In this document: positions 1,050 through 44,509 of the stretch, in pieces
How positions within the stretch are numbered: position 1 is the stretch's first letter
How the letters are laid out: each line of letters starts with the position of its first letter
Source of the DNA: Thermoplasmata archaeon
GTDB taxonomy: Archaea > Thermoplasmatota > Thermoplasmata > Lutacidiplasmatales > UBA184
Length of the DNA: 64,000 nt
NCBI GenBank assembly: GCA_035656275.1
Contig: DASRSW010000062.1
Location: 986 to 64,985, forward strand
Direction of reading: 5' to 3'
The notes under the pieces: model-generated
Databases searched by the model: none
Seen by the model: only the letters and a program-made list of their open reading frames with translations
Told to the model about the DNA's origin: nothing
Position numbers and translations under genes: made by a program

Positions 1050-2744
1050 TTACGAACCCACAGCCGATGCGGAATCGAGTCCGAGTGACCTAAGGATCTG
1101 CCCTTGGTTTCGAGCCACGAACGCGTTCCGGATCGTGTAGACTCTTTCAGTCAGCTGGTTCCGACGGAGTCTCAGGAAGTCCTCCGTCACGTCGGCCGGT
1201 CGTTGAGTCAACCCCTCCGCATCGGCTCCGGCTTCGTGAATGTCGGCGAGACCTTCAACGAGCCCGAGAAGCATCTCGTTGCTCTCCCTCGTTACCTCCC
1301 TGAGCGATTTCTCATAGGATTCGGCTCCGTCCAGGTCGGGGAAGAGGCGTTCGCTTACGGCTCGCTCTTCCCATACACTCTTGAGAAGAGTCGAAAGCGC
1401 CCCGTTCCCATGAATCCATCCCGCGAAATTGACGAGTGGGGCCAGTTCCTCATAGAAAGCGTTCAAACGAGGATCGAGAAAGTCATAGTCGGGATTACAG
1501 ACGTCCCCACGGAACCGCCCGGTGGACTCCAGGGTCTTCTTGATCGGAGTGCCGTCGTACGGAAGCATTCGACAGAAGATCGCCGGATTGGTGCCGTCGC
1601 CGACGATCTGACGAAGGAAGCGAACGTTGGAGCGGACCGAATCGAACGTGCTTGAGGGATCGAGGAGCATGAAGCCGAAATCAAAGCGGATTCCGAGGCT
1701 CTTGAGAATCGATACAGCCCGAAGATTCTCCTCCACTGTCGTCCCCTTGTTCAACGTCTCGAGGCCCTCCTCCGTACCGGACTCGAGACCCATGTAGACC
1801 ATGTAGAGTCCGGCCTCCTTGAGCCTCGCGAATAAGGTCGATTCCACCGAGTCCGCCCGACAATTGATCTTCCAGATGGTGCGCTCCGGCAGCTTCGACC
1901 CGTGAAGTTCGCCGAGCAACTCATCGGTCCAGCGGCGCCAGGCTGGACCGAAAAGCGGGAAGTCATCGTCCTGGAACAGGAAGATGCTTGCGTCTTTCCG
2001 TTCGCGAAGGTGCAACATTTCGCGGACGACCTCCGCCGGACGGCGGGTCCGTACGACTTTGCCTCGGACGGAACGATAGAAGGCGTGGATCGAACAGAAG
2101 GAGCAAGTCCGGGAGCACCCTCGGCTGGCAAGTATCGGCATGATCCTTCGGCCCAGAATCATGTCACCGTCGTACTCTCGGTCGGGGAATGGCAGGTCGT
2201 CAAGGTTCGTAATCAGAGGGCGCAGCTCGTTGCAGACCCCCCCAATATCGCCCCGATAAGCGATGCCCCGAAGGTCATGCCACTCTCGGTGGGTTGCGAC
2301 TCGATCGACCAGCTCAAGGAGTGTCTGTTCTCCCTCGAACCGGACGACGCTGTCCAGATCAGGGATCAGATCGAGGGTCCGCTCCCAACTGAGACTGGGA
2401 AAGTGGCCTCCGATCGTGAAGTGAGACGACACGCCATGGGACCGAAAATAGCGGGCAAGGTACGCGAATCGGTGGACATGGAACTGAAAAATCAGGGAGA
2501 ATCCGATGACGCTGGGCTGCTCTTGCTGCGCCCGGCCCAAAAGCGTCTCGGCCTCGTCCTCGAAGTCGCCCACGATTACCTTGTACCCCTCTTGGCGAAC
2601 CACAGCCGAAAGGTAACCGAGCCCCAAGTTCCCCTGTTGTTGGAACCCAATGAGCATGACCGGACGCGACAAGTCTCGAGCGAAAGTCGAATCAACTCTT
2701 CCTTCGAGCCTCGAGAGCTGAACGAAGGAGGGGCCGACCGTCAT
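1050..2744 (-). CDS. B12-binding-domain radical SAM protein (class B rSAM)
   Basis: N-terminal cobalamin-binding-like Rossmann segment (VMLIGFQQQGNLGLGYLSAVV..). Canonical CxxxCxxC motif (ASRGCSRTCSFCS). Long C-terminal extension. Confidence 0.8.
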   Translation of the reverse strand: MTVGPSFVQLSRLEGRVDSTFARDLSRPVMLIGFQQQGNLGLGYLSAVVRQEGYKVIVGDFEDEAETLLGRAQQEQPSVIGFSLIFQFHVHRFAYLARYFRSHGVSSHFTIGGHFPSLSWERTLDLIPDLDSVVRFEGEQTLLELVDRVATHREWHDLRGIAYRGDIGGVCNELRPLITNLDDLPFPDREYDGDMILGRRIMPILASRGCSRTCSFCSIHAFYRSVRGKVVRTRRPAEVVREMLHLRERKDASIFLFQDDDFPLFGPAWRRWTDELLGELHGSKLPERTIWKINCRADSVESTLFARLKEAGLYMVYMGLESGTEEGLETLNKGTTVEENLRAVSILKSLGIRFDFGFMLLDPSSTFDSVRSNVRFLRQIVGDGTNPAIFCRMLPYDGTPIKKTLESTGRFRGDVCNPDYDFLDPRLNAFYEELAPLVNFAGWIHGNGALSTLLKSVWEERAVSERLFPDLDGAESYEKSLREVTRESNEMLLGLVEGLADIHEAGADAEGLTQRPADVTEDFLRLRRNQLTERVYTIRNAFVARNQGQILRSLGLDSASAVGS

Positions 2745-2759
2745 GCTCGGGGGCCGGCG

Positions 2760-2990
2760 CTAACGAGTGAGCGTCTTGGCGATCCTCTCGTTAGCCGAGA
2801 TCTGGGCATCAATCATAGCTCTCTGGGCTGTGAGCATCGCTCGCTCCCGCTCGAGCACGATCCCGGCGAGCTGCACCTGGAGCTCCCTCGAGAGCAAGGA
2901 AAGAACCCAGGGAACGGGATCTCCGATCGGCCACCGCGGAAGGCGCAACACTTCTGCAAGCATCTCGGCCTGCCTGTCTTGCTCTGGCAT
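2760..2990 (-). CDS. Small helical hypothetical protein (76 aa) immediately upstream of and co-directional with the rSAM gene
   Basis: ORF ends 16 nt before the rSAM start. No Cys. Predicted all-helical. Confidence 0.35.
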   Translation of the reverse strand: MPEQDRQAEMLAEVLRLPRWPIGDPVPWVLSLLSRELQVQLAGIVLERERAMLTAQRAMIDAQISANERIAKTLTR

Positions 2991-3322
2991 GGCAGGGACA
3001 TTGATATCCCCGATTAAAATCTATCTGACGGCCCTAGACACTTACCTACTACACCGGACCTTGTCCCAGAGGCTGAAGGTCAACCCGATAGCGCCCGAAT
3101 GGGGGATTGGCGCTAGCCGCGCGATTGGTTCCCGGAGTAGTCTCGATGAGCGCAGCCCCCGCCCTGCGTGCGACCTCTCGGCGAGGCTGTAGGCCAAGTC
3201 TCTGTGCGAGCCAGTCTACCCCCGGCAGGATAGGTCGCCACAGTAGTTGACGGCAGAATAGCGATCGCCGCTTCTCTGGGACAGGGAGCTTCGACGCAGG
3301 CAAGAGAAAGCCGCCTGACAAG

Positions 3323-3346
3323 GTTCGAACTCGCCGACGAGCTCGG
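3323..3346 (-). other. tRNA 3'-end-like remnant (T-arm plus CCTTGTCAGG), putative att scar
   Basis: Minus-sense GCGAG-TTCGAAC-CTTGT-CAGGCGG. No matching 5' acceptor half found nearby. Confidence 0.35.
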
Positions 3347-3681
3347 AAAGCAATCTGCCCTTCGTCGAGGTCTTCCCCGGCGAGAGCCCCCGCGACCCGG
3401 AGCTGCGGTGGGGTCCGGTAGCGACGTGTCTCTGTGGAGGTCCCGCGCGAAAGGACTCACACGGCCGCGTCGCGGTGGGGCGCTCGTGAAGCTGAACGCT
3501 ACGCGGGCTGGGAGGGTCGATGGTTTCCCCATTGTCGGGAAACCGATTGGCCAACAGGGCAAGGATTGGAAGGTACTCAGCTCCGATTGAAGAAAACACG
3601 CGGCTGGTCAAGTCAGGGACCTCCCCCGCGGAGGATCGACTGAGGAGTCCAATGGCAGCCGATCTGACGTCGAGCGCGTAG

Positions 3682-4065
3682 CTACGCCTTCGAGAGCTCT
3701 TGTATCAGCCCTCCAAGGTCAGAGTTCAGGAGGCTGGTCCTTCGACTTAGGATCACTCGTGCGGCGCCGGTGCATGGATCGTCGGGGTCGAAGGGGGGGA
3801 TCTTGTAGAGCCTCGTCGACCTGTGGAACAGGTTGGCGTCTGCGACTTTCACAGATAGCGCCCGAGCTTGGTGGAGTGTCCTGGCAGAGATGACCGCCTC
3901 CACGAATCGCACGTCGGCTGGCCGGAGCCTCAGTCGGGCTGACTCGTGACCGAGCAAGGTCCGGTAATTCGACATGGCACTGCGGAACGTGGGGTCGATG
4001 CGTACTCCCTCTTTCCTAGCGCGCACCTGGACTAAGTCGATGACTCCTTTAGCTGAACGGGGCAT
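3682..4065 (-). CDS. Hypothetical protein (127 aa)
   Basis: ORF only. Confidence 0.3.
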   Translation of the reverse strand: MPRSAKGVIDLVQVRARKEGVRIDPTFRSAMSNYRTLLGHESARLRLRPADVRFVEAVISARTLHQARALSVKVADANLFHRSTRLYKIPPFDPDDPCTGAARVILSRRTSLLNSDLGGLIQELSKA

Positions 4066-4092
4066 ACGGGCCGTAATGTATTACGGGTTAAG

Positions 4093-4968
4093 GTGATTGT
4101 CTTGGATACCGAGGATTCACAAGCTAGCGAAACGCCTGCCCTGGACACGACCCCCCTGCCGGTAACTCCATCGAGAATGGGATCATCCGGCGGTCTCGGG
4201 CAAGGGCTGGTCGCTCAGCCGCCATCAGGAGCGACCATGGATGGCGCGTTATCTCAGAAGAGACGCACCGCGAACAAGGAAGGTAAGCCTTCGGAGCTGC
4301 AGACCAAGATCGCAGAGCTTCACGGGATTCTCGCGGTCGCGTCGGAGAATGGACTCTTCGCGAAGGGGGCGGCTGGAGAGCGTCACTTCGCGGCGTTAAA
4401 GACATCGCTCGAGCGAGCGTCGGTTCTCTCAGACGGTGAGGTTCCGAGTGAACACGAGGCATACTCCGCCCTCCAGGATTTCTACAAGGAACTGAGTGAA
4501 GCGCAGAATGAGGCGGGGTTTGGATGGCGGTTCGTCCAGCTGTACGCAGTCCCGGCGTGGATCTACCTGGTGCTTACTCCGTTGGCGGTCTACTTCATTC
4601 AGAACTGGTACCACCTCTTGCCAAGCTCGCCCATTCTCGAAGCATCAATATGGGGACTTCTGGGTGGCTGCCTGCAGGGTTTCTACTGGATCTGGCAACA
4701 AGTGAGCCGCGGACAATTCAGGGCACAGTGGGCCTTCTGGGTGCTCTCACTTCCCCCGGGCGGACTGATCTTCGGGGCGATTGCCTATCTGGTCGTCACC
4801 GGAGGATTGTTGTCGCTGTTCACCACGTCGCCGCCTGCCATCAACGAGACATCGGCCTTTCTTTTCTCCGCATTGGCCGGCTTCAGCTGGAAGGACTTTG
4901 CTCGCCTGCTGAAACAGTTCTGGGATCGACTGGGAACGGAACCTGCAAAAGGTCAAGCAACCAAGTGA
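4093..4968 (+). CDS. Hypothetical membrane protein (soluble N-terminal half, about 4 C-terminal TM helices)
   Basis: Hydrophobic segments from residue ~150 onward. AT-rich box about 20 nt upstream. Confidence 0.55.
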   Translation: MIVLDTEDSQASETPALDTTPLPVTPSRMGSSGGLGQGLVAQPPSGATMDGALSQKRRTANKEGKPSELQTKIAELHGILAVASENGLFAKGAAGERHFAALKTSLERASVLSDGEVPSEHEAYSALQDFYKELSEAQNEAGFGWRFVQLYAVPAWIYLVLTPLAVYFIQNWYHLLPSSPILEASIWGLLGGCLQGFYWIWQQVSRGQFRAQWAFWVLSLPPGGLIFGAIAYLVVTGGLLSLFTTSPPAINETSAFLFSALAGFSWKDFARLLKQFWDRLGTEPAKGQATK

Positions 4969-5415: not shown

Positions 5416-7107
5416 CTACGGGAAGAGGCCGGTGTCGGGAAGCGGATCAACTTGAATGGGTATGGCTCCGCCATAGGTCACCCGTGGAGTCGGATTGTCT
5501 CTGGACCCCGAATCAGGCTTGGAAACTGTCGAGTCGTTCGCCTTAAACACCCTATGGTAACGCAGCATCGCCTCATTCGCAGACTGAGCTCTACCGAGGT
5601 CCGTATACACCTCGATTAGCGCGGGCAATAGGACGAAGCCTTCCAGCGCCATGTAGTTCGCCTGAAGAATCCTGTCAGCTTCCTCCAAGTATGGTAGGGC
5701 TTGTGTGGGCATGCCAGCCACACGGTAAAGATTGCCGAGAAGGCTAGATAGTCGAGCCCTGATCGCCGGAGGTAGTACTGTTCGATATCGTTCTAGTAGG
5801 TCTTCGATAACCAGGATGCCCTCTGCGGCGCCATCCGGCTCTTCAAGGATGCAGTTGGCGTACAGCAGTTTGCATTGGGCTTCTAGCATCGGACTCGGAT
5901 TGTTCAGGAGGTCCAACAATTGTACTGCTGTTGCGCTGTACAGGAACATCCTGGCTCGCATCTGTTGCACACGGCGAGTTACATCGAAGGGGGTTGAAGT
6001 CTCTGTGGAGCCAAGTTGCACCTGTCGGATTGTCGCGATTCTTCGTCCCACGGCAACCGCCGCAATGTAGTTTGTAATCAGCCTGTCCTCGACAGATTCT
6101 GCTGTCAAACTCATGCGGCTAAGATCAGCGGAGGGGATTTCTACCATGGACTTGCCGGAGTCGAAGGTACCCCACCAGGCCGCCTCTGTTAGGTTGAGGC
6201 GTATCACCGTCTGGCAGAACTGACGGGCGTTCGATAGGTGATACTGCAGCTTGTTGAGCTTTAGTCGGGGACTGGCTTGATGGACCGCTTTAGGACGGAC
6301 GAAGTCCTCCGTGATGGAGAGTCTTGCCAGAAGTTTGGCCAGGAGCGCTCTCGTATCGCACTTGACAGCGGTTCCGTGTAGTGATCCCTTCAAGTCGCTC
6401 CTGAGAACTGCGTTCAGGTCCTCGACCTGGAACCCCGGCCCTGCCTCCTGGTGATTGACCAATATCAGTCTGCTATCAGTCGGACCGATGTCTCTGAGAG
6501 TTGGGTTAATGTCGAAGTAGTCAGAAAAGCTGTAACCAAGTACTAGCACGAGCCCATGCCCATCTTTTGCTAGGAGCTCTTCTAGACTTGAGCGGAGCTC
6601 CGGCCTGGCCTGATTACGAACAAGCTCCTCTGACGTGGCCTTAACGGAAGCGGGGTCAGAGGCTCGCCCGTGAAGATGGTCAACGTCCAGCCTGAACTCC
6701 TCAGTGGGGTCCAATCGAAACCGGCCCGACCGGCTAAGAGAATTGGCCGCTTTCTCCACAAGTTCATCAAAGTTTGTCGTCACTACCCGTCTGGTGCAGC
6801 CCGCCGACATAATCGCGGCGATGGCGTAGTGCTCGAACGTTGGCTCCGCCGATGAAAATACATCCAGCAGTTCGCCGTAGAAAGAACCACCAAGTGATCC
6901 GATTATCACCTCAAGCGGGAGCTGTCTCACTCGAGGAGGAATCGGGTCGAGCCACAGCGCCGACAAAATTGAATTCGAGATGCTGAGAGCACCAGGGATT
7001 CCCGATGGTATCGAGACTCCCGCACCTAACCATAATGCTAGCTCGCCGCGTCTCGCGGAGCCAGCCAGAATCTCGATGATACCGTCAACAGAGTCCGGAG
7101 TCGTCAT
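5416..7107 (-). CDS. SIR2-like (SIR2_2 / DHS-like NAD-binding) domain protein fused to a C-terminal TPR-like helical-repeat domain
   Basis: N-terminal motifs LWLGAGVSIPSGIP, VVTTNFDELVEKA, VDHLHG and LVLGYSFSDYFD match the defence-type SIR2_2 signature (GAGxS / TTNYD / LHG / GYSxxD). The C-terminal ~300 aa is a helical repeat. Confidence 0.75.
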   Translation of the reverse strand: MTTPDSVDGIIEILAGSARRGELALWLGAGVSIPSGIPGALSISNSILSALWLDPIPPRVRQLPLEVIIGSLGGSFYGELLDVFSSAEPTFEHYAIAAIMSAGCTRRVVTTNFDELVEKAANSLSRSGRFRLDPTEEFRLDVDHLHGRASDPASVKATSEELVRNQARPELRSSLEELLAKDGHGLVLVLGYSFSDYFDINPTLRDIGPTDSRLILVNHQEAGPGFQVEDLNAVLRSDLKGSLHGTAVKCDTRALLAKLLARLSITEDFVRPKAVHQASPRLKLNKLQYHLSNARQFCQTVIRLNLTEAAWWGTFDSGKSMVEIPSADLSRMSLTAESVEDRLITNYIAAVAVGRRIATIRQVQLGSTETSTPFDVTRRVQQMRARMFLYSATAVQLLDLLNNPSPMLEAQCKLLYANCILEEPDGAAEGILVIEDLLERYRTVLPPAIRARLSSLLGNLYRVAGMPTQALPYLEEADRILQANYMALEGFVLLPALIEVYTDLGRAQSANEAMLRYHRVFKANDSTVSKPDSGSRDNPTPRVTYGGAIPIQVDPLPDTGLFP

Positions 7108-7455: not shown

Positions 7456-8268
7456 CTACAACGTGCAGGTGACGGACTTCACATGGTGGAGGCCCACGAG
7501 GTCAGTGTACTCAACCGTAATGTCCAGCTGCTTCGGATCCTTGGTGAAATGGGACGAGTCGAGCTCAAATTCCGCCTTTTCACCTGCAGGAAGAACGGAA
7601 ACGTATGGCCTCCGATTAGCATCCCATTGACCGGTCGGACTTGAGAACCTCAGGGCGATCGTTACCTCCTCGGCGGGACCAAGGCCAAGGTTTCGGACCC
7701 CGACCCAGCGATGGTCCGCACGTATCAGATGCCCTTCGAATCGATAGTAGGGATCCATTGCAGGAGCGATCTTTGCGCGCTCAGTGCTGTGGCGCTCAGA
7801 CTCTGCCATGCGTTTCGCTTCCCCAGCTTCTGCAGTGAGCGAAACTATGCGGTCTTCCGCAGCGTGAAGGCGGTCCTCGAGCCGTCTTCTGTCTTCCGCG
7901 GCCTCTCGCCGCGTGTTCGTTACCTGCTCGCGAAGCTCCTTCTCGACGGCTTCGGCGGTCAGCTTTGCCTCCGAGGCTTCGCGTTGAACTCGCGAAATTT
8001 CCTGATCCTTCAGAGAAGAGTCTCTGCGCGAGGCATCCAACTCGTGTCGGAGGCGCGCGCTCCGCGAAATCGAAGCAACGAGGTAGAATCCGCCCAAGCC
8101 CAGAAGAGCGAGGAGCCCTCCGAAGGCGGATGCTTCGGATGGGTCTGCCCCAAAACGGCTGAGACTGTACGCAATAGCCGCAGCGATCCCTAGGATCGTG
8201 ATTACCGCTGCGAGGTACCCTAGAGGCCGGTCGGATTCTGAGAGCAGGCCCTGGGCTTCTCGCATCAC
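7456..8268 (-). CDS. Membrane-anchored coiled-coil protein (2 N-terminal TM helices, a long charged coiled coil, a C-terminal beta-rich domain)
   Basis: Two hydrophobic helices at residues ~18-65, then an E/R/A-rich heptad region. Confidence 0.55.
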   Translation of the reverse strand: MMREAQGLLSESDRPLGYLAAVITILGIAAAIAYSLSRFGADPSEASAFGGLLALLGLGGFYLVASISRSARLRHELDASRRDSSLKDQEISRVQREASEAKLTAEAVEKELREQVTNTRREAAEDRRRLEDRLHAAEDRIVSLTAEAGEAKRMAESERHSTERAKIAPAMDPYYRFEGHLIRADHRWVGVRNLGLGPAEEVTIALRFSSPTGQWDANRRPYVSVLPAGEKAEFELDSSHFTKDPKQLDITVEYTDLVGLHHVKSVTCTL

Positions 8269-8872: not shown

Positions 8873-9127
8873 GTGAGTCCTCCATCGATGGCCGAGAAGG
8901 CATTCCGGGTGATCTACACCACACAGTGGCTCGAAGACGGGCGGCCCAAAGTCTACAGTGAGATTGTCTATGGGTTGGAGCCGGTGAGCACGGGTGAAAC
9001 ATTCAAGAAGCGGAAGATGGACGAGCACAAGGGGCTGGTAGTCCGGTTGGTCGCGGTCAACGAGATCCATTTCTCGCCCAAGGGCACACCAAGTGAACCT
9101 TCCATCAGGCTAGTCGTCGGAGACTGA
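8873..9127 (+). CDS. Small hypothetical protein (84 aa)
   Basis: ORF only. Protein-like composition. Confidence 0.25.
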   Translation: MSPPSMAEKAFRVIYTTQWLEDGRPKVYSEIVYGLEPVSTGETFKKRKMDEHKGLVVRLVAVNEIHFSPKGTPSEPSIRLVVGD

Positions 9128-9321: not shown

Positions 9322-10359
9322 TCAGTCGGAGGTAGGAGCTGGATGAAAGCCTCGTAGTACGCTCACCATTCTTTCGATAGCCTCAATCGAGCGATAGACG
9401 GCGGGAATCTCGAATCTCCTCTGACTCTTGTGGATGATGTTATTCCTGATGTTGTAGACTTTCTCGACATCCGCAATCAGCTGGCTTACATCAGACCGCG
9501 CTTCAAGTACTTCGATAATGAACCTGGTGAGTCCGATTAGTGGAATGTTCCTGATGATCTCCTCGGCGTGGGTTCGCCTTTGCTCCTCCACTCCGCTCTC
9601 GGTTCCGAATCTAGACGCGAGATAGGCTTCGATCTCGGCTTCTAGCGCTATCACCAGCTCGATGTAGACCAGGTCGTATTCCCTAGTCACGTAGTGAATT
9701 CTGCATCTGGCGAGGTAGTTTCGTCTAAGCTGCGTGCGTCCGTCGTAGTCGATTGTCAGGATTCTGAATCTCTCAAGCTCTGCCCGACCAGCCGGCCAGT
9801 CAGCGGTGTAGCACAAGTCTAGGTAGACGATTGCTTCAGGGGGAGTTGTCTCGAGAATGAAGCGAATCTTGCGTAACGTCGGTAATGGGCCTAGGTCCGC
9901 ACTCTTCACGCGATAGGAGGTCTCCCAGTACCCTTCGGAGGCGGTATCGTCGATGGCGGCCGCGAGCCTTTCTTCCAGATTCGTTGTATCAAGGCGACCC
10001 GCCGAGGCCAATCCCAATTCGTAGTCGGAGTAGTCGAGCACTGCCAGTTCGACGGACTCGACCGGGATCCCCGCCGCTTCCGAAATCCACTTGTCAAGAT
10101 TCTGACGGGTCAGCCCGAGACCGTCTAGGCGGACAATGGCGGTACCCACCGTAGTCTCGTACCAACAGTCGAGTCCGTCATGCTCGCGAGACGGAGCGAA
10201 CGCCGCAGAATCGGGATTCGGCCGGCGAGAATCTAAGTCTATTTTCCGATCTGCAGGTCGGAATAGACAGCTCAGGGCGTGGTCGTCAGTCTCCGGGACC
10301 GCGTTTCGCCATTTCAACGCCGCTGAATCGCCTATCCAGAGAGTCGACCAATCCGCCAT
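9322..10359 (-). CDS. Hypothetical protein with C-terminal HEPN-like module (RNxxxH motif IRNNIIH)
   Basis: Helical C-terminal ~110 aa carries R-N-x3-H about 45 residues from the C-terminus. The N-terminal ~230 aa is an unknown domain. Confidence 0.6.
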   Translation of the reverse strand: MADWSTLWIGDSAALKWRNAVPETDDHALSCLFRPADRKIDLDSRRPNPDSAAFAPSREHDGLDCWYETTVGTAIVRLDGLGLTRQNLDKWISEAAGIPVESVELAVLDYSDYELGLASAGRLDTTNLEERLAAAIDDTASEGYWETSYRVKSADLGPLPTLRKIRFILETTPPEAIVYLDLCYTADWPAGRAELERFRILTIDYDGRTQLRRNYLARCRIHYVTREYDLVYIELVIALEAEIEAYLASRFGTESGVEEQRRTHAEEIIRNIPLIGLTRFIIEVLEARSDVSQLIADVEKVYNIRNNIIHKSQRRFEIPAVYRSIEAIERMVSVLRGFHPAPTSD

Positions 10360-10617
10360 CGCCGGGACAAAGGGCGCCGTCCCAAAGCGATTGTCTTGTA
10401 CCAGGTCCGGTGGGGCCTATTGACACGCGACTCGACCTACCTCGCCCGGCTCCGTGCGTCAATGCGCTGTTGCGAGGTCCCCTCTCAGACCCGTTTTGAG
10501 AAAGAGTGGCCCATCACATGCCGTCTCCGCCCGGGCTTCTCGCACCTCGGCCGTTACGGGCTCGACACGGTGTGCGGGCCGAGCGCACCATCCGAAAGGT
10601 GGCTTCAGGCGGCGCGA

Positions 10618-11583
10618 TCAAATCGTCTCTTCCCTCCCACCCGAAAGCTCCCGGGCACGGCCTACCAAGAGCAATCGCACTAGCGCCCGGAGGTACCCAT
10701 ATCCGTTATTCAACTCGTCTGGGCTCTTCGCGTCCCACTCGTCATGCACGACCCTGTTTCGGGTCTCCCCCAGGGCCTCCAACTTTTGGACCTCGACATC
10801 ATTCAAGCCGAGCCTCCGGGCGGCTTCCATCCGCTGGGCCTCGTGCTCGTTTGTAAGGCAGACTACGGCCTTCCACAAGAGGACCATCGCGAGCGCCCCC
10901 GCGTATCCAAAGCCCTTCTGGACCTGAACCATGCTCTCGCGCTCCTCTCGTGCCGCGTTGATTCCGGCCTCATACACCCAAATCGCCCGCTTGTAGAATA
11001 GCAGTGCAGAACTGAGGGCGCTGTCCGCCGCTGTGGCCCACTCTGCTCCTTCGCGAAAGTCAGAGGCGAGCCGCGTCGTGTTCCAGCCGGCAAACGAGTG
11101 AGTCATCATCTCGGAAGTTCCGACCGTTCCGCCGGCCTCAGTCCAAGCACGTTGATACTTCGCCTTGAAAACCACGTTCGTCCCCAGCCCAGCGGTAACC
11201 TCCAGGTCCCGAACAGCTTCAGTGGTGAGGTCAATCGCGCCCCAGAGATCGTTCCCCATAACAGTGAGGGACACAACCAAGATGTTGTCCTTGAGAGAGT
11301 ACTGGTAACCCTTGAGGGGGAACGTGATGTCAATCGCCTCCTCTGGCGACCTGCTCCGCGGCGTAGTTTCGCCGTCAGGCTGTAGCAGGGTGGTTCCATC
11401 CGGAAGTCCGAACTGCGTCCGAGGTTCGAGTTCGAACTCGACGAATGCTCGCGTGGGGACTGGAGGTGGCCCGAACCACTTCCTACGCGCTTCCTCATCC
11501 ATGCGACCCAACAGGTCCTCCTTCTCAAGAAAGCTCCCAGAGCTCGACGGTCTGATCGGTCGGGTCCTCCCCCTGGGCCGCAA
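10618..11583 (-). CDS. Hypothetical protein with C-terminal HEPN-like module (RNxxxH motif TRNRVVH). Divergent tandem neighbour of 9322-10359.
   Basis: Same layout (unknown N-terminal domain plus helical C-terminus with R-N-x3-H about 50 residues from the end). The N-terminus is unrelated to its neighbour. Confidence 0.6.
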   Translation of the reverse strand: MRPRGRTRPIRPSSSGSFLEKEDLLGRMDEEARRKWFGPPPVPTRAFVEFELEPRTQFGLPDGTTLLQPDGETTPRSRSPEEAIDITFPLKGYQYSLKDNILVVSLTVMGNDLWGAIDLTTEAVRDLEVTAGLGTNVVFKAKYQRAWTEAGGTVGTSEMMTHSFAGWNTTRLASDFREGAEWATAADSALSSALLFYKRAIWVYEAGINAAREERESMVQVQKGFGYAGALAMVLLWKAVVCLTNEHEAQRMEAARRLGLNDVEVQKLEALGETRNRVVHDEWDAKSPDELNNGYGYLRALVRLLLVGRARELSGGREETI

Positions 11584-12883
11584 TGGCGTGGATTCTCGGT
11601 CCTACCCCTCGGGCCGAATCCCTAACCAGGAATCGCAGATCTGTTCGCATCTGGAAACTGGTGCCCCGCTTGCGGACCGTTCATTCCTTTCAGCCTCGGA
11701 GCCAATCGGAAGTGAACCACATGGACGCGACGTTCAACTTTCTGGACGCCCCCCTGTCACCGTAACAGCGAGGGCGGAGAGCCTGAGGAAGGACTCCTGA
11801 CTGGCCCCGGCTCCGAGACCCATCTCCTCTCGCCGGCAGGCCTGCAACCCGCCACCATGTTCGTCTTCAGACCCTCCCTTACCCGATCATGGGAAGGGTT
11901 TCACGGTCCAGGAATCGGCACAAGAGACCGACTTTGTCATGAGGTCCAGCCGCGATGCTTGCATTAGACGGATCACCCTCGCCGAGCAAGGATCCCAGCA
12001 GCCGTGGGGTCCGTTATGTGGGCTAAACCGACTCTGCGGCCAACGCCCTGTCTATGAATACAAGAGCTTGGGCCGACGTCGATCTAAACTCTCTTCGAGC
12101 CACCTTCTGAAGCTTCGTCAGAAGCCCCTTCGGCAGGTAGACGGCTAGCGCAGCTCGGCCCTCCGCTTGCGGCTTGCGTGAACGCGACATTCCCCGGTTC
12201 CCTCAATGGCCAGCAGCCAATCCGTCGAGAGGACACCCGGCGCCCCCTCGACTCGGGACGTTCGGTGGACAACAGCGGCGCGTATATATTCGTTAGCCGA
12301 GGCTCGCTCTCGGGTCTCATTGGCCAGCCGTTCCGGCTCTGACTCCTGGGACAGGAGTCGCACCTTGAACTCGCACCGCCGTCACCATGCTGATAGGTGT
12401 CGGCGAGAGTAGAAAGCAAGAGCCTAACTAGTCCTATCGACGCTGTACGTCACAGCTCGAGGTTTCGGGCAGAAGATTTACGAGGGGGCCGATCTGCCCG
12501 ATGGCGGCTGCCTCCGATCGCACTCGAGATGGTAAAAGTCTTGGCGCCATCAGCTAGCAAGCTTGGCACCTAGCGTTTTCCCGGAACCGGGCTGCCATGT
12601 CGAGGGAGCAAGCCAATCGATGTCGTTAGGGCGTTACAGACGACATTTGTGACTGTTCACGATGGATCATTGGCCCGATCCGGCAACTCTCCGCGAGCTG
12701 GCCACTAGGCATCCTATTCTTCTAGGACGCCCTCTCGCCTCTGGCGGTTACTAATCCTTCCCGGCATCCATTTGGCCAACCGGCAAACCGGGTGTGCAAG
12801 GAGCCCCTTGGGTGACCTGCTGCTAGAGTACCTCCGCGCACGACACTATACAACATGTTGCAGCACTAAGACGCTAGGGTACG

Positions 12884-12890
12884 TTATATT
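12884..12890 (+). promoter_or_regulatory. Archaeal TATA-like box (TTATATT) about 35 nt upstream of the probable ATG at 12924
   Basis: AT-rich heptamer in otherwise GC-rich DNA at the expected distance. Confidence 0.35.
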
Positions 12891-12895
12891 CTAGC

Positions 12896-42908: not shown

Positions 42909-44393
42909 TCAGTGCAGTCGGCCGTCGTTGTCCGTCCGAGGGATCGGAGTGGGCCTTAGGATTGCACGGTTGGGTCCCAGTTGGGCCACGAACTCATAAC
43001 CCGACCCGATGAAGCGCTCCGCCTCGGCGAGGGAGACCACTCGCTGAGTCGAGGGAGGGCTGGGGGTGGCAGCCGGGGTCTGGAAAGGTAGTTCCTCGTT
43101 CGTGGCGGTGGTGCGTTGACCAGACCGCTTCCCGGGCTCTCCTCGGCTCTTCTCCTGCTCCGCCAGCATCTTCGCGAGGAACTCGATCGCCTCGGGCTCG
43201 CGGAGTAGCGCCGCCAAGCGCTCCTCCGCGCTCCGAGCTTCCTCGATTTGCTTCACGGCTGGAAGGGAGAGGGGGCCTCCGCAGGTCATGCAATACACTG
43301 CGCCGGGCGGGTTGACCGTCTTACAACGACCGCATCTGGACGGAGCCCGGCTAGGCTCCGGATTCTCCCTCGGGTCTGGCACTTTCACCCCGTAGCGTGC
43401 ATTCAGTGCACCGATCACATCCTTCCCACTCAAGTGGACGTAGTGCCGGGCGACGTCGCTCCCGGGAACCCACCCTGCTACCTTCTCGAGAATGGAGGTC
43501 GAGATTGCTGGGTCCTTAGCGAGTATAGTCAGCCGGGATCGGCGCAGCGCGTAGGCCGTCACCGGCTTCTTTATGCCCGCCCGCAGTGCGGCGGTCTCGA
43601 GCGCCTTGTACATCGCGCGATACGTGGCCGGCCTTCCCGACCGTTCCCCGCCCAAGTCGACCCAGAGAGGGGAGGAGGTGTCTTCCCGAGCCGGATGAGC
43701 GTTCAGCCAGGCCAGCAGCGCCGGGACCGCATCCTCGTAAACCGGGGCCGGCTCCGGGGCGGACCCTTTCTCCCGACTGACTCTGAGCTCGATGTATCCC
43801 TCGTCGTGAGGAACTACATCGCAAATCCGAAGTCGGTAGATCTCGCCAGGTCGGCAGCCGGAATTGAATAGTGTCCAGATCCAGGCCTTGTCACGGAAGT
43901 TCAGCGCCGCGTCAGCGATCCGAGCGACGTCCTCACGGGAGAGCATGTCCGATGGACCAGCCACGGGTTTCCATTTCTCCAGGCGGATTCGGAGCCAAGA
44001 AGGGTACTCCCTTCCCTGGCGGGCGAACCACCATCGCCAGAACGTTCCCAAGCAGTTCGTACCGGTCGCCCGTGTAGCTCGGGCGTAGACGCCCGGAGGA
44101 AAGGCCGCTGTGAATGCAGCCGGGGTCTCCTTGTCGGGGGAGAGGAAACGTGAGCCCAGCCGGGACGCTGCCAAAGGCAGCCAGGTTAGGAATGTCCGGA
44201 TCCGGACCTCGCTGACCTCGGGCCGGCGGGCCGAGACAAAAGCGAGAATCGCGTCCCGTTCAGATCGCTCGAGGTCGAGGACCGTGCCGACGGGTCCCCC
44301 CCCACCCAACTGAGCGAGACGTTTCTCGACGTAGCCAGACACGAGGTGGACGTCCCCGAACGGATCTTCGCGAAGTCGCTTCCGGCCCGCCAT
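42909..44393 (-). CDS. Tyrosine recombinase/integrase with C-terminal zinc-ribbon (CGRC...CMTCGG) extension
   Basis: Catalytic-domain residues ALRRSRLTILAK, ARHYVHLSG. Located 43 nt from the tRNA-Thr 3' end. Confidence 0.85.
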   Translation of the reverse strand: MAGRKRLREDPFGDVHLVSGYVEKRLAQLGGGGPVGTVLDLERSERDAILAFVSARRPEVSEVRIRTFLTWLPLAASRLGSRFLSPDKETPAAFTAAFPPGVYARATRATGTNCLGTFWRWWFARQGREYPSWLRIRLEKWKPVAGPSDMLSREDVARIADAALNFRDKAWIWTLFNSGCRPGEIYRLRICDVVPHDEGYIELRVSREKGSAPEPAPVYEDAVPALLAWLNAHPAREDTSSPLWVDLGGERSGRPATYRAMYKALETAALRAGIKKPVTAYALRRSRLTILAKDPAISTSILEKVAGWVPGSDVARHYVHLSGKDVIGALNARYGVKVPDPRENPEPSRAPSRCGRCKTVNPPGAVYCMTCGGPLSLPAVKQIEEARSAEERLAALLREPEAIEFLAKMLAEQEKSRGEPGKRSGQRTTATNEELPFQTPAATPSPPSTQRVVSLAEAERFIGSGYEFVAQLGPNRAILRPTPIPRTDNDGRLH

Positions 44394-44436: not shown

Positions 44437-44509
44437 AGCCGCGGGAGGGGTTTGAACCCTCGACCTGCTCCTTACCAAGGAGCCGCTCTGCCAGCTGAGC
44501 CACCGCGGC
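44437..44509 (-). tRNA. tRNA-Thr (anticodon GGU)
   Basis: Hand-folded cloverleaf. Acceptor GCCGCGG/CCGCGGC. D-stem GCTC/GAGC. Anticodon stem GCTCC/GGAGC with loop TTGGTAA. T-stem GAGGG/CCCTC with loop TTCAAAC. 73 nt, no encoded CCA. Confidence 0.85.

Follow-up and report, generated by a model that had tools for sequence, protein, structure and literature searches.

The window analysed here is a stretch of 64,000 nucleotides of an 85-kb contig (DASRSW010000062.1, assembly GCA_035656275.1) from the metagenome-assembled genome of a Thermoplasmata archaeon. It carries two adjacent genes on the minus strand, here called A and B, whose products were identical to the NCBI hypothetical proteins VFG07_07260 (A) and VFG07_07265 (B). 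Gene A (9322-10359, minus strand) is an open reading frame (ORF) of 345 aa, in which ~225 aa at the N-terminus form an alpha+beta domain and the C-terminal part is a predicted HEPN domain. Gene B (10618-11502, minus strand) most likely encodes 294 aa, with an uncharacterised, strand-rich domain at its N-terminus and again a predicted HEPN domain at its C-terminus. A spacer of 258 bp (10360-10617) separates the B stop from the A start. A first-pass annotation of the same sequence had described two adjacent minus-strand genes of 345 and 321 aa; both ORFs are present, the second being the maximal ORF of gene B (10618-11583, minus strand), open to a TTG at 11583, but for B the 294-aa reading is the more likely one.

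The same annotation had pointed to an R-N-x3-H motif near both C-termini (IRNNIIH and TRNRVVH), and this was found as described. In A, RNNIIH (9430-9447, minus strand) occupies residues 305-310 (R305, N306 and H310), with 41 residues from the motif R to the C-terminus; in B, RNRVVH (10744-10761, minus strand) occupies residues 275-280 of the 321-aa ORF, with 47 residues from R to the C-terminus. As read from the translations, each is a predicted catalytic Rx4H site. When each protein was shuffled 200,000 times, RNxxxH within the last 80 residues occurred with P = 0.0032 for A and P = 0.0020 for B, giving a joint probability of ~6e-6. A chance occurrence of the motif in both neighbours is thus unlikely, as had been supposed. 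Other occurrences of R[NDH]xxxH in the window were considered as further HEPN genes and rejected, being in spurious frames or non-helical contexts.

HEPN domains are defined by an Rx4-6H motif located where helix 3 ends, with a polar residue (N, D or H) directly after the R (PMC3710099). In their fold two alpha-hairpins form an up-and-down helical bundle, and helices 2 and 3 are often separated by an insert. The AlphaFold2 model of A had a mean predicted local distance difference test (pLDDT) score of 73.5, with values of 76-92 over most of the HEPN part. Its C-terminal helices spanned residues 228-252, 259-270, 274-285, 292-311 and 318-336, and R305-H310 closed helix 292-311 on its C-terminal side. 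The model of B had a mean pLDDT of 62.5, with 60-95 (mostly at least 80) over the C-terminal helices, which spanned 160-185, 190-215, 220-229, 234-251 and 260-285 in a 293-aa numbering; its motif stood at the end of helix 234-251. In both models helix 3 ended with the motif, the loop leading to helix 4 came next, and a short extra helix preceded helix 3. The domain was placed at 9340-9684 (minus strand, residues ~226-340) in A, by the model, Foldseek and weak Pfam and PADLOC matches, and at 10645-11022 (minus strand) in B, by the model, Foldseek and a weak Pfam match.

When the models were compared with the PDB by Foldseek, HEPN proteins made up eight of the top nine matches of model A. These were Csm6 (5yjc and 6tug), AF_0298 (2hsb), SO_3166, HepT, the sacsin HEPN domain, Csx1-Crn2 (8y6z) and 2q00; their PDB entries include 5yep, 6m6u and 3o10. 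The match of model A to the AF_0298 HEPN structure 2hsb had a probability of 1.0 and a template-modelling (TM) score of 0.66 by target. The same structure was the top match of model B (E 0.011, probability 1.0), and the HEPN toxins 7ae6, 7ae8 and 7ae9 were matched by model B with probabilities of 0.80-0.97. Kinesin and TRPML matches of model B were dismissed as meaningless, with low TM-scores and coming from the low-confidence N-terminal part. Thus a fold prediction, proposed earlier as a check for a helical HEPN core, gave a helical bundle in both models with HEPN proteins as the best PDB matches.

Profile searches pointed in the same direction. Protein A alone matched only HEPN_LA2681 in Pfam (12.9 bits, E 0.071, on the C-terminal part) and CARF_HEPN in PADLOC (E 0.006-0.009, residues 222-333), and members of the A family gave weak C-terminal matches to HEPN_Swt1 and HEPN (PF05168) with E 0.011-0.075. 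Protein B matched only HEPN_RiboL-PSP in Pfam (12.2 bits, E 0.15-0.17, on the motif region). Thus all of the weak profile matches on the C-terminal parts were to HEPN families (LA2681, RiboL-PSP, Swt1, PF05168 and CARF_HEPN). Conservation of the motif in homologs, whose absence would have spoken against a HEPN domain, was also seen: R305, N306 and H310 were kept in all 15 full-length homologs of A, and RNRV[VT]H in all three close homologs of B (P0006, P0007 and P0020), a small sample. Across the A family a YIELxIxLE helix with an invariant E240 was kept as well.

Several observations weigh against this assignment. No Foldseek match had E <0.001, target-normalised TM-scores were 0.5-0.66, model confidence was moderate, and the alignment behind B held five sequences. 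The curated HEPN profiles were not reached, the best scores being 12.9 bits (cutoff 27) and 12.2 bits (cutoff 28.4), and when full-length and C-terminal alignments were used as profiles against PDB sequences, only noise and no HEPN chain came back. The optional acidic element of HEPN domains, Ex3[KR], with K or R at +4 from E240, was present in 9 of 15 members of the A family, and the window protein has E at that position. In the B family there was no invariant acidic residue once the remote relative P0021 was included. A defence function of A and B, in turn, is suggested by association. At their own thresholds, Pfam, NCBIfam, PADLOC and PHROGs recognised neither protein.

Taken together, both C-terminal modules are best read as HEPN domains whose Rx4H is intact and has the typical polar residue, N, after the R, in line with the first-pass annotation: the motif is conserved, it lies where helix 3 ends, and HEPN proteins head the structural matches. 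The assignment is made at the level of the superfamily, because no Foldseek match reached E <0.001 and no HEPN chain was found by sequence profiles; its basis is the motif, its conservation, the predicted fold and the domain architecture together.

The family of gene A comprised three homologs in a first search and 15 full-length homologs after a profile search, at 25-40% identity, from metagenomes, Methanolobus sp. ZRKC5 and Methanosarcinaceae. All 15 aligned from Met1, with M1, S5, W17, P22 and D26 invariant. The public model of A (VFG07_07260, 275 aa; protein P0001) begins at an internal GTG, corresponding to V71. Since every homolog conserves residues 1-70, the 345-aa reading is right and the 275-aa public model is too short. 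The 70 residues missing from it (10150-10359, minus strand) correspond to the start of the PF18871 domain described below.

The N-terminal domain of A (9685-10359, minus strand, residues 1 to ~225) was modelled by AlphaFold2 as a mixture of strands and helices. One family member, P0018, passed the gathering score of PF18871 (HEPN_Toprim_N) with 27.1 vs 25 bits, its residues 1-82 matching profile positions 1-79 of 223. In all, PF18871 was matched by 4 of 16 members of the A family, three of them below threshold (E 0.005-0.02). The window protein itself did not match PF18871, though it aligned over its full length with members that did. By these sequence matches the N-terminus of A is HEPN/Toprim-NTD1-like and would belong to this known domain, as a putative sensor or regulatory part. 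HEPN/Toprim-NTD1 is an alpha+beta domain of ~240 aa that occurs fused to two HEPN families, to Toprim and to an Mrr-like nuclease, in architectures of the Abi-like kind (PMC3710099). Gene A fits this layout, described in 2013, of HEPN/Toprim-NTD1 fused to HEPN.

The start of gene B was most likely the ATG at 11502, giving 294 aa, because the TTG at 11583 falls inside the decayed remnant of another gene (see below). This start is suggested by sequence comparison: the homolog P0020 begins at a Met aligned with the ATG at 11502, and the homologous locus L003 has a GTG there. The NCBI model of B is also 294 aa. Only two close homologs were found (72-78% identity). When 1.84 billion representatives were searched exhaustively with an HMM of the B alignment, only two clusters were added, P0020 (45% identity, motif RNRVTH) and the remote relative P0021 (E 3e-5), in which the motif is RDDYDVAH, an Rx6H form. 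The B family is thus tiny, with four other clusters from the 1.84 billion representatives and the word-indexed hits. Scans for the B family in viral contigs and JGI metagenome contigs found no relatives, neither A nor B matched annotated phages or plasmids by tblastn, PHROGs had no match for either protein, and a BFVD viral fold search with B was uninformative.

The DNA upstream of B pointed to its origin. In the homologous loci L002 and L011, B lay a few kb downstream of a gene for a protein-primed family-B DNA polymerase (pPolB, PF03175), located at 2355-4373 and 1790-3829, respectively, with Fic, or TGT, Ogg-like, QueC, TIR and 8xMP genes in between. L003 has the 3′ end of a pPolB gene (about 700-1200) directly against B, and Fic follows B. 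Thus a pPolB gene or its 3′ end was upstream of B in 3/3 other loci with enough upstream DNA (L002, L011 and L003). The window contains no pPolB gene. A segment at 11516-11614 (minus strand), abutting the start of B, was identified by tblastn and DNA alignment as a dead 3′ remnant of such a gene: it aligns with the last ~35 codons of the pPolB genes of L002 and L011 and with the region upstream of B in L003, and it has a 1-nt deletion and an in-frame TGA. With a pPolB 3′ remnant at its 5′ side, B therefore appears to have come from another mobile element. The B family can be described as nearly an orphan HEPN family tied to pPolB elements, in which its members lie among Fic, TIR and 7-deazaguanine genes. 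B looks like cargo that recurs in an uncharacterised mobile element or virus with pPolB, from Thermoplasmata-like archaea. The ~1.3 kb upstream of the remnant (11615-12895) had no convincing ORF, tRNA or Rfam match and may be degraded mobile-element DNA.

Whether A and B belong together was judged from their similarity and from the neighbourhoods of their homologs. The first-pass annotation had taken the N-terminal regions to be unrelated, and they were found to be so: BLASTP of A against B gave nothing significant, the one meaningful alignment being 16 aa around the motif (E 0.83), and a full-length profile-profile alignment of the two families covered the C-terminal helices only. By hhalign, the families were aligned with E 0.061 over the full length and E 0.009 for the C-terminal domains, over helix 2 through the motif only. 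On these profile comparisons, the A-B similarity is of the level usual between different HEPN families and would not reflect paralogy. A search of 14 other A-family loci for a relative of B (tblastn, E up to 1, within about 6-7 kb) found none, and no relative of A was near B in seven other B-family loci, five of them distinct. Apart from one set of near-identical genomes, the 14 other A loci had no neighbour in common, and no conserved small partner was seen for either family. In L001 the A homolog has a 246-aa gene upstream of it, which was considered as a B-like or HEPN partner and set aside (hhalign E 0.66, no Pfam or PADLOC matches). The proposal that A and B are paralogous HEPN effectors with swapped sensor domains was not supported by these comparisons, with hhalign E of 0.009-0.06 and each family found without the other elsewhere. 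Instead, A and B would be members of different families that were separately acquired and are adjacent only in this genome, an ordinary pile-up of a defence island.

The surroundings of the two genes looked like an integrated island. The left 44 kb of the window has 55-65% GC and the DNA beyond it 65-73% GC, with a step from ~59% to ~70%. At this step lie a tyrosine integrase gene (42909-44393, minus strand) and, adjoining it, tRNA-Thr(GGT) (44437-44509, minus strand), the end of the low-GC part. An integrase and a tRNA-Thr being found at the GC step, A and B therefore look to be inside an integrated low-GC island of at least 44 kb. No repeat of the tRNA-Thr end (att site) of at least 14 nt was found in the window, and the other end of the island is probably outside it. 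Scanning 1-30 kb for Rfam families and tRNAs gave no hits. A promoter and terminator scan of 9.0-12.9 kb returned 0 sites; the sigma-70 and intrinsic-terminator consensus used is bacterial and unsuited to archaea.

Downstream of A, a gene for a 563-aa SIR2_2 protein with a TPR-like C-terminal half (5416-7107, minus strand) was found at a distance of 2.2 kb; the protein matched the PADLOC SIR2 models (pAgo-associated SIR2, PDC-S65 and ThsA). Between A and this gene is one for a 270-aa protein with a transmembrane segment and a coiled coil (7456-8268, minus strand). These two genes, on the same strand as A, may be another defence module. The 1 kb that separates A from the coiled-coil gene is empty apart from an 84-aa ORF (8873-9127, plus strand) convergent to A, with a protein-like composition and no Pfam match. 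Elsewhere, homologs of A were near a retron-type reverse transcriptase, integrases and a region with PolB and Cas1. In the locus L007 (Methanolobus sp. ZRKC5, CP151792.1; 8030-8881 and 9517-14960), PDC-S14, a candidate defence gene by PADLOC (DUF4357; E 3.6e-106), was 70 bp after the A homolog, a large PolB-like gene and Cas1 (a casposon-like region) were a few kb from it, and two integrase genes were upstream.

We propose that A and B are two independent single-gene HEPN effectors that lie side by side by chance in the cargo or defence region of an integrated island, with a probability of about 0.6. Both lack a conserved partner and occur in mobile or defence contexts. By analogy with RNase L/KEN, PrrC/RloC, Csm6, HepT and Abi proteins, the HEPN domains of A, or those of B, would homodimerise and form a metal-independent endoribonuclease site, which the N-terminal domain would hold off until an infection-related cue is sensed. 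Cleavage of RNA would then lead to growth arrest, as in abortive infection or by a toxin. From this analogy we infer the RNase activity, dimerisation, N-terminal sensor role and defence phenotype of A and B. For HEC-08, a single-gene HEPN defence, mutating the motif His abolished defence (bioRxiv 10.1101/2024.01.29.577857).

The genes might instead serve mobile elements rather than the host, as addiction or stabilisation toxins or as weapons against competing elements, and for B especially there is something to be said for this. A pPolB gene or its 3′ end precedes B in 3/3 other loci with upstream DNA, with Fic, TIR, TGT/QueC and 8xMP genes between or beside them, the B of the window keeps a pPolB 3′ remnant, homologs of A are near integrases and the PolB and Cas1 region, and A and B are themselves in an integrated island. 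However, no antitoxin-like conserved partner was seen for either family, the B loci number only four or five, and mobile elements typically carry defence genes too, so that the context does not tell the two readings apart; we consider this one unlikely. A more specific version, in which B is an undescribed HEPN family and a near-obligate cargo just downstream of pPolB in mobile elements or viruses of Thermoplasmata, serving the element in superinfection exclusion or addiction, with an N-terminal domain that is a new kind of sensor and a window copy that is domesticated or a stranded survivor, is a speculative and more doubtful proposal.

Two further explanations set aside either the independence of the genes or their activity. 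That A and B form one two-gene system, be it a heterodimeric HEPN pair with a composite site and two different sensors, or one gene regulating or neutralising the other in a toxin-antitoxin manner, would agree with their adjacency on the same strand, with the HEPN-type module in both, and with the action of HEPN enzymes as dimers with composite sites (PMC3710099). However, the pairing was absent from the 14 other A loci and seven other B-family loci, 258 bp lie between the genes, the remnant of a different mobile element at the 5′ end of B argues for separate acquisition, and the two families are barely related, making such a system highly improbable. The diversified two-gene arrangement of the abortive-infection type that had first been suggested is likewise not supported: A and B are not paired elsewhere, B comes from a pPolB-carrying element, and the architecture of A has been known since 2013. 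A weaker variant of the speculative proposal above, that B is a near-obligate cargo of pPolB elements, would have A and B of this lineage starting to act together as a HEPN heterodimer. The C-terminal modules might also not be active HEPN nucleases, and be generic helical bundles with a family-specific conserved RN..H that has another role, or non-catalytic HEPN-like domains that bind RNA or a ligand. Every sequence match to HEPN families was indeed below threshold, the Foldseek E-values were not significant, and helical bundles draw spurious matches (14-3-3 and designed repeats stood lower in the same lists). But two independent families keep the R, the polar residue and the H at the canonical spacing and structural position, the HEPN entries had Foldseek probabilities of 0.8-1.0 vs <=0.1 for generic bundles, and the type of N-terminal domain in A is known fused to HEPN and other nucleases; an absence of HEPN nuclease activity is therefore very unlikely in our view.

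As two single-gene HEPN effectors, A and B resemble several known systems in part. The closest for A was HEPN/Toprim-NTD1-HEPN (MAE_18760/MAE_28990 or ERFG_01251 type; Anantharaman et al. 2013, PMC3710099), which shares with it an alpha+beta domain of ~225 aa followed by a HEPN domain of ~115 aa with a conserved Rx4H, and solo genes in mobile or defence contexts. However, the A family is archaeal (Thermoplasmata and Methanosarcinales) whereas the known family is described as bacterial, only the first ~80 of 223 profile positions align, and the HEPN part of A reaches no named HEPN family. Like AbiD/AbiF/Abi2, AbiJ, AbiU2, AbiV and HEC-08, both proteins join a variable N-terminal domain to a HEPN domain with Rx4-6H, have no obligatory partner and are found in defence islands, but A and B are archaeal and had no match to Abi2/AbiD/AbiF, AbiJ, AbiU2 or AbiV (Pfam and PADLOC, E up to 1).

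Csm6 and Csx1 (CARF-HEPN) also have an N-terminal sensor and a C-terminal HEPN domain, and Csm6 was among the best matches of model A. These matches, however, were confined to the HEPN part, the N-terminus of A is PF18871-like and not CARF/Rossmann, and no cas genes were among the neighbours scanned. HepT/MNT toxins and small HEPN proteins of the AF_0298 type were the best structural matches of both models (2hsb, 5yep, 6m6u and 7ae6-9) and share the Rx4H. Those proteins are single-domain, of ~130 aa, with an adjacent MNT nucleotidyltransferase, whereas A (345 aa) and B (294 aa) are 2-3 times as large and have extra domains, and no nucleotidyltransferase was among the A and B neighbours scanned.

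Existing knowledge of how HEPN effectors work is unchanged by A and B. Archaeal immune and toxin genes beyond CRISPR and restriction-modification are, however, poorly catalogued. The analysis of gene A corrects a truncated public gene model and adds Thermoplasmata and Methanosarcinales to the range of the HEPN/Toprim-NTD1-HEPN architecture, and A and B are candidate single-gene RNase effectors for catalogues of archaeal defence genes.

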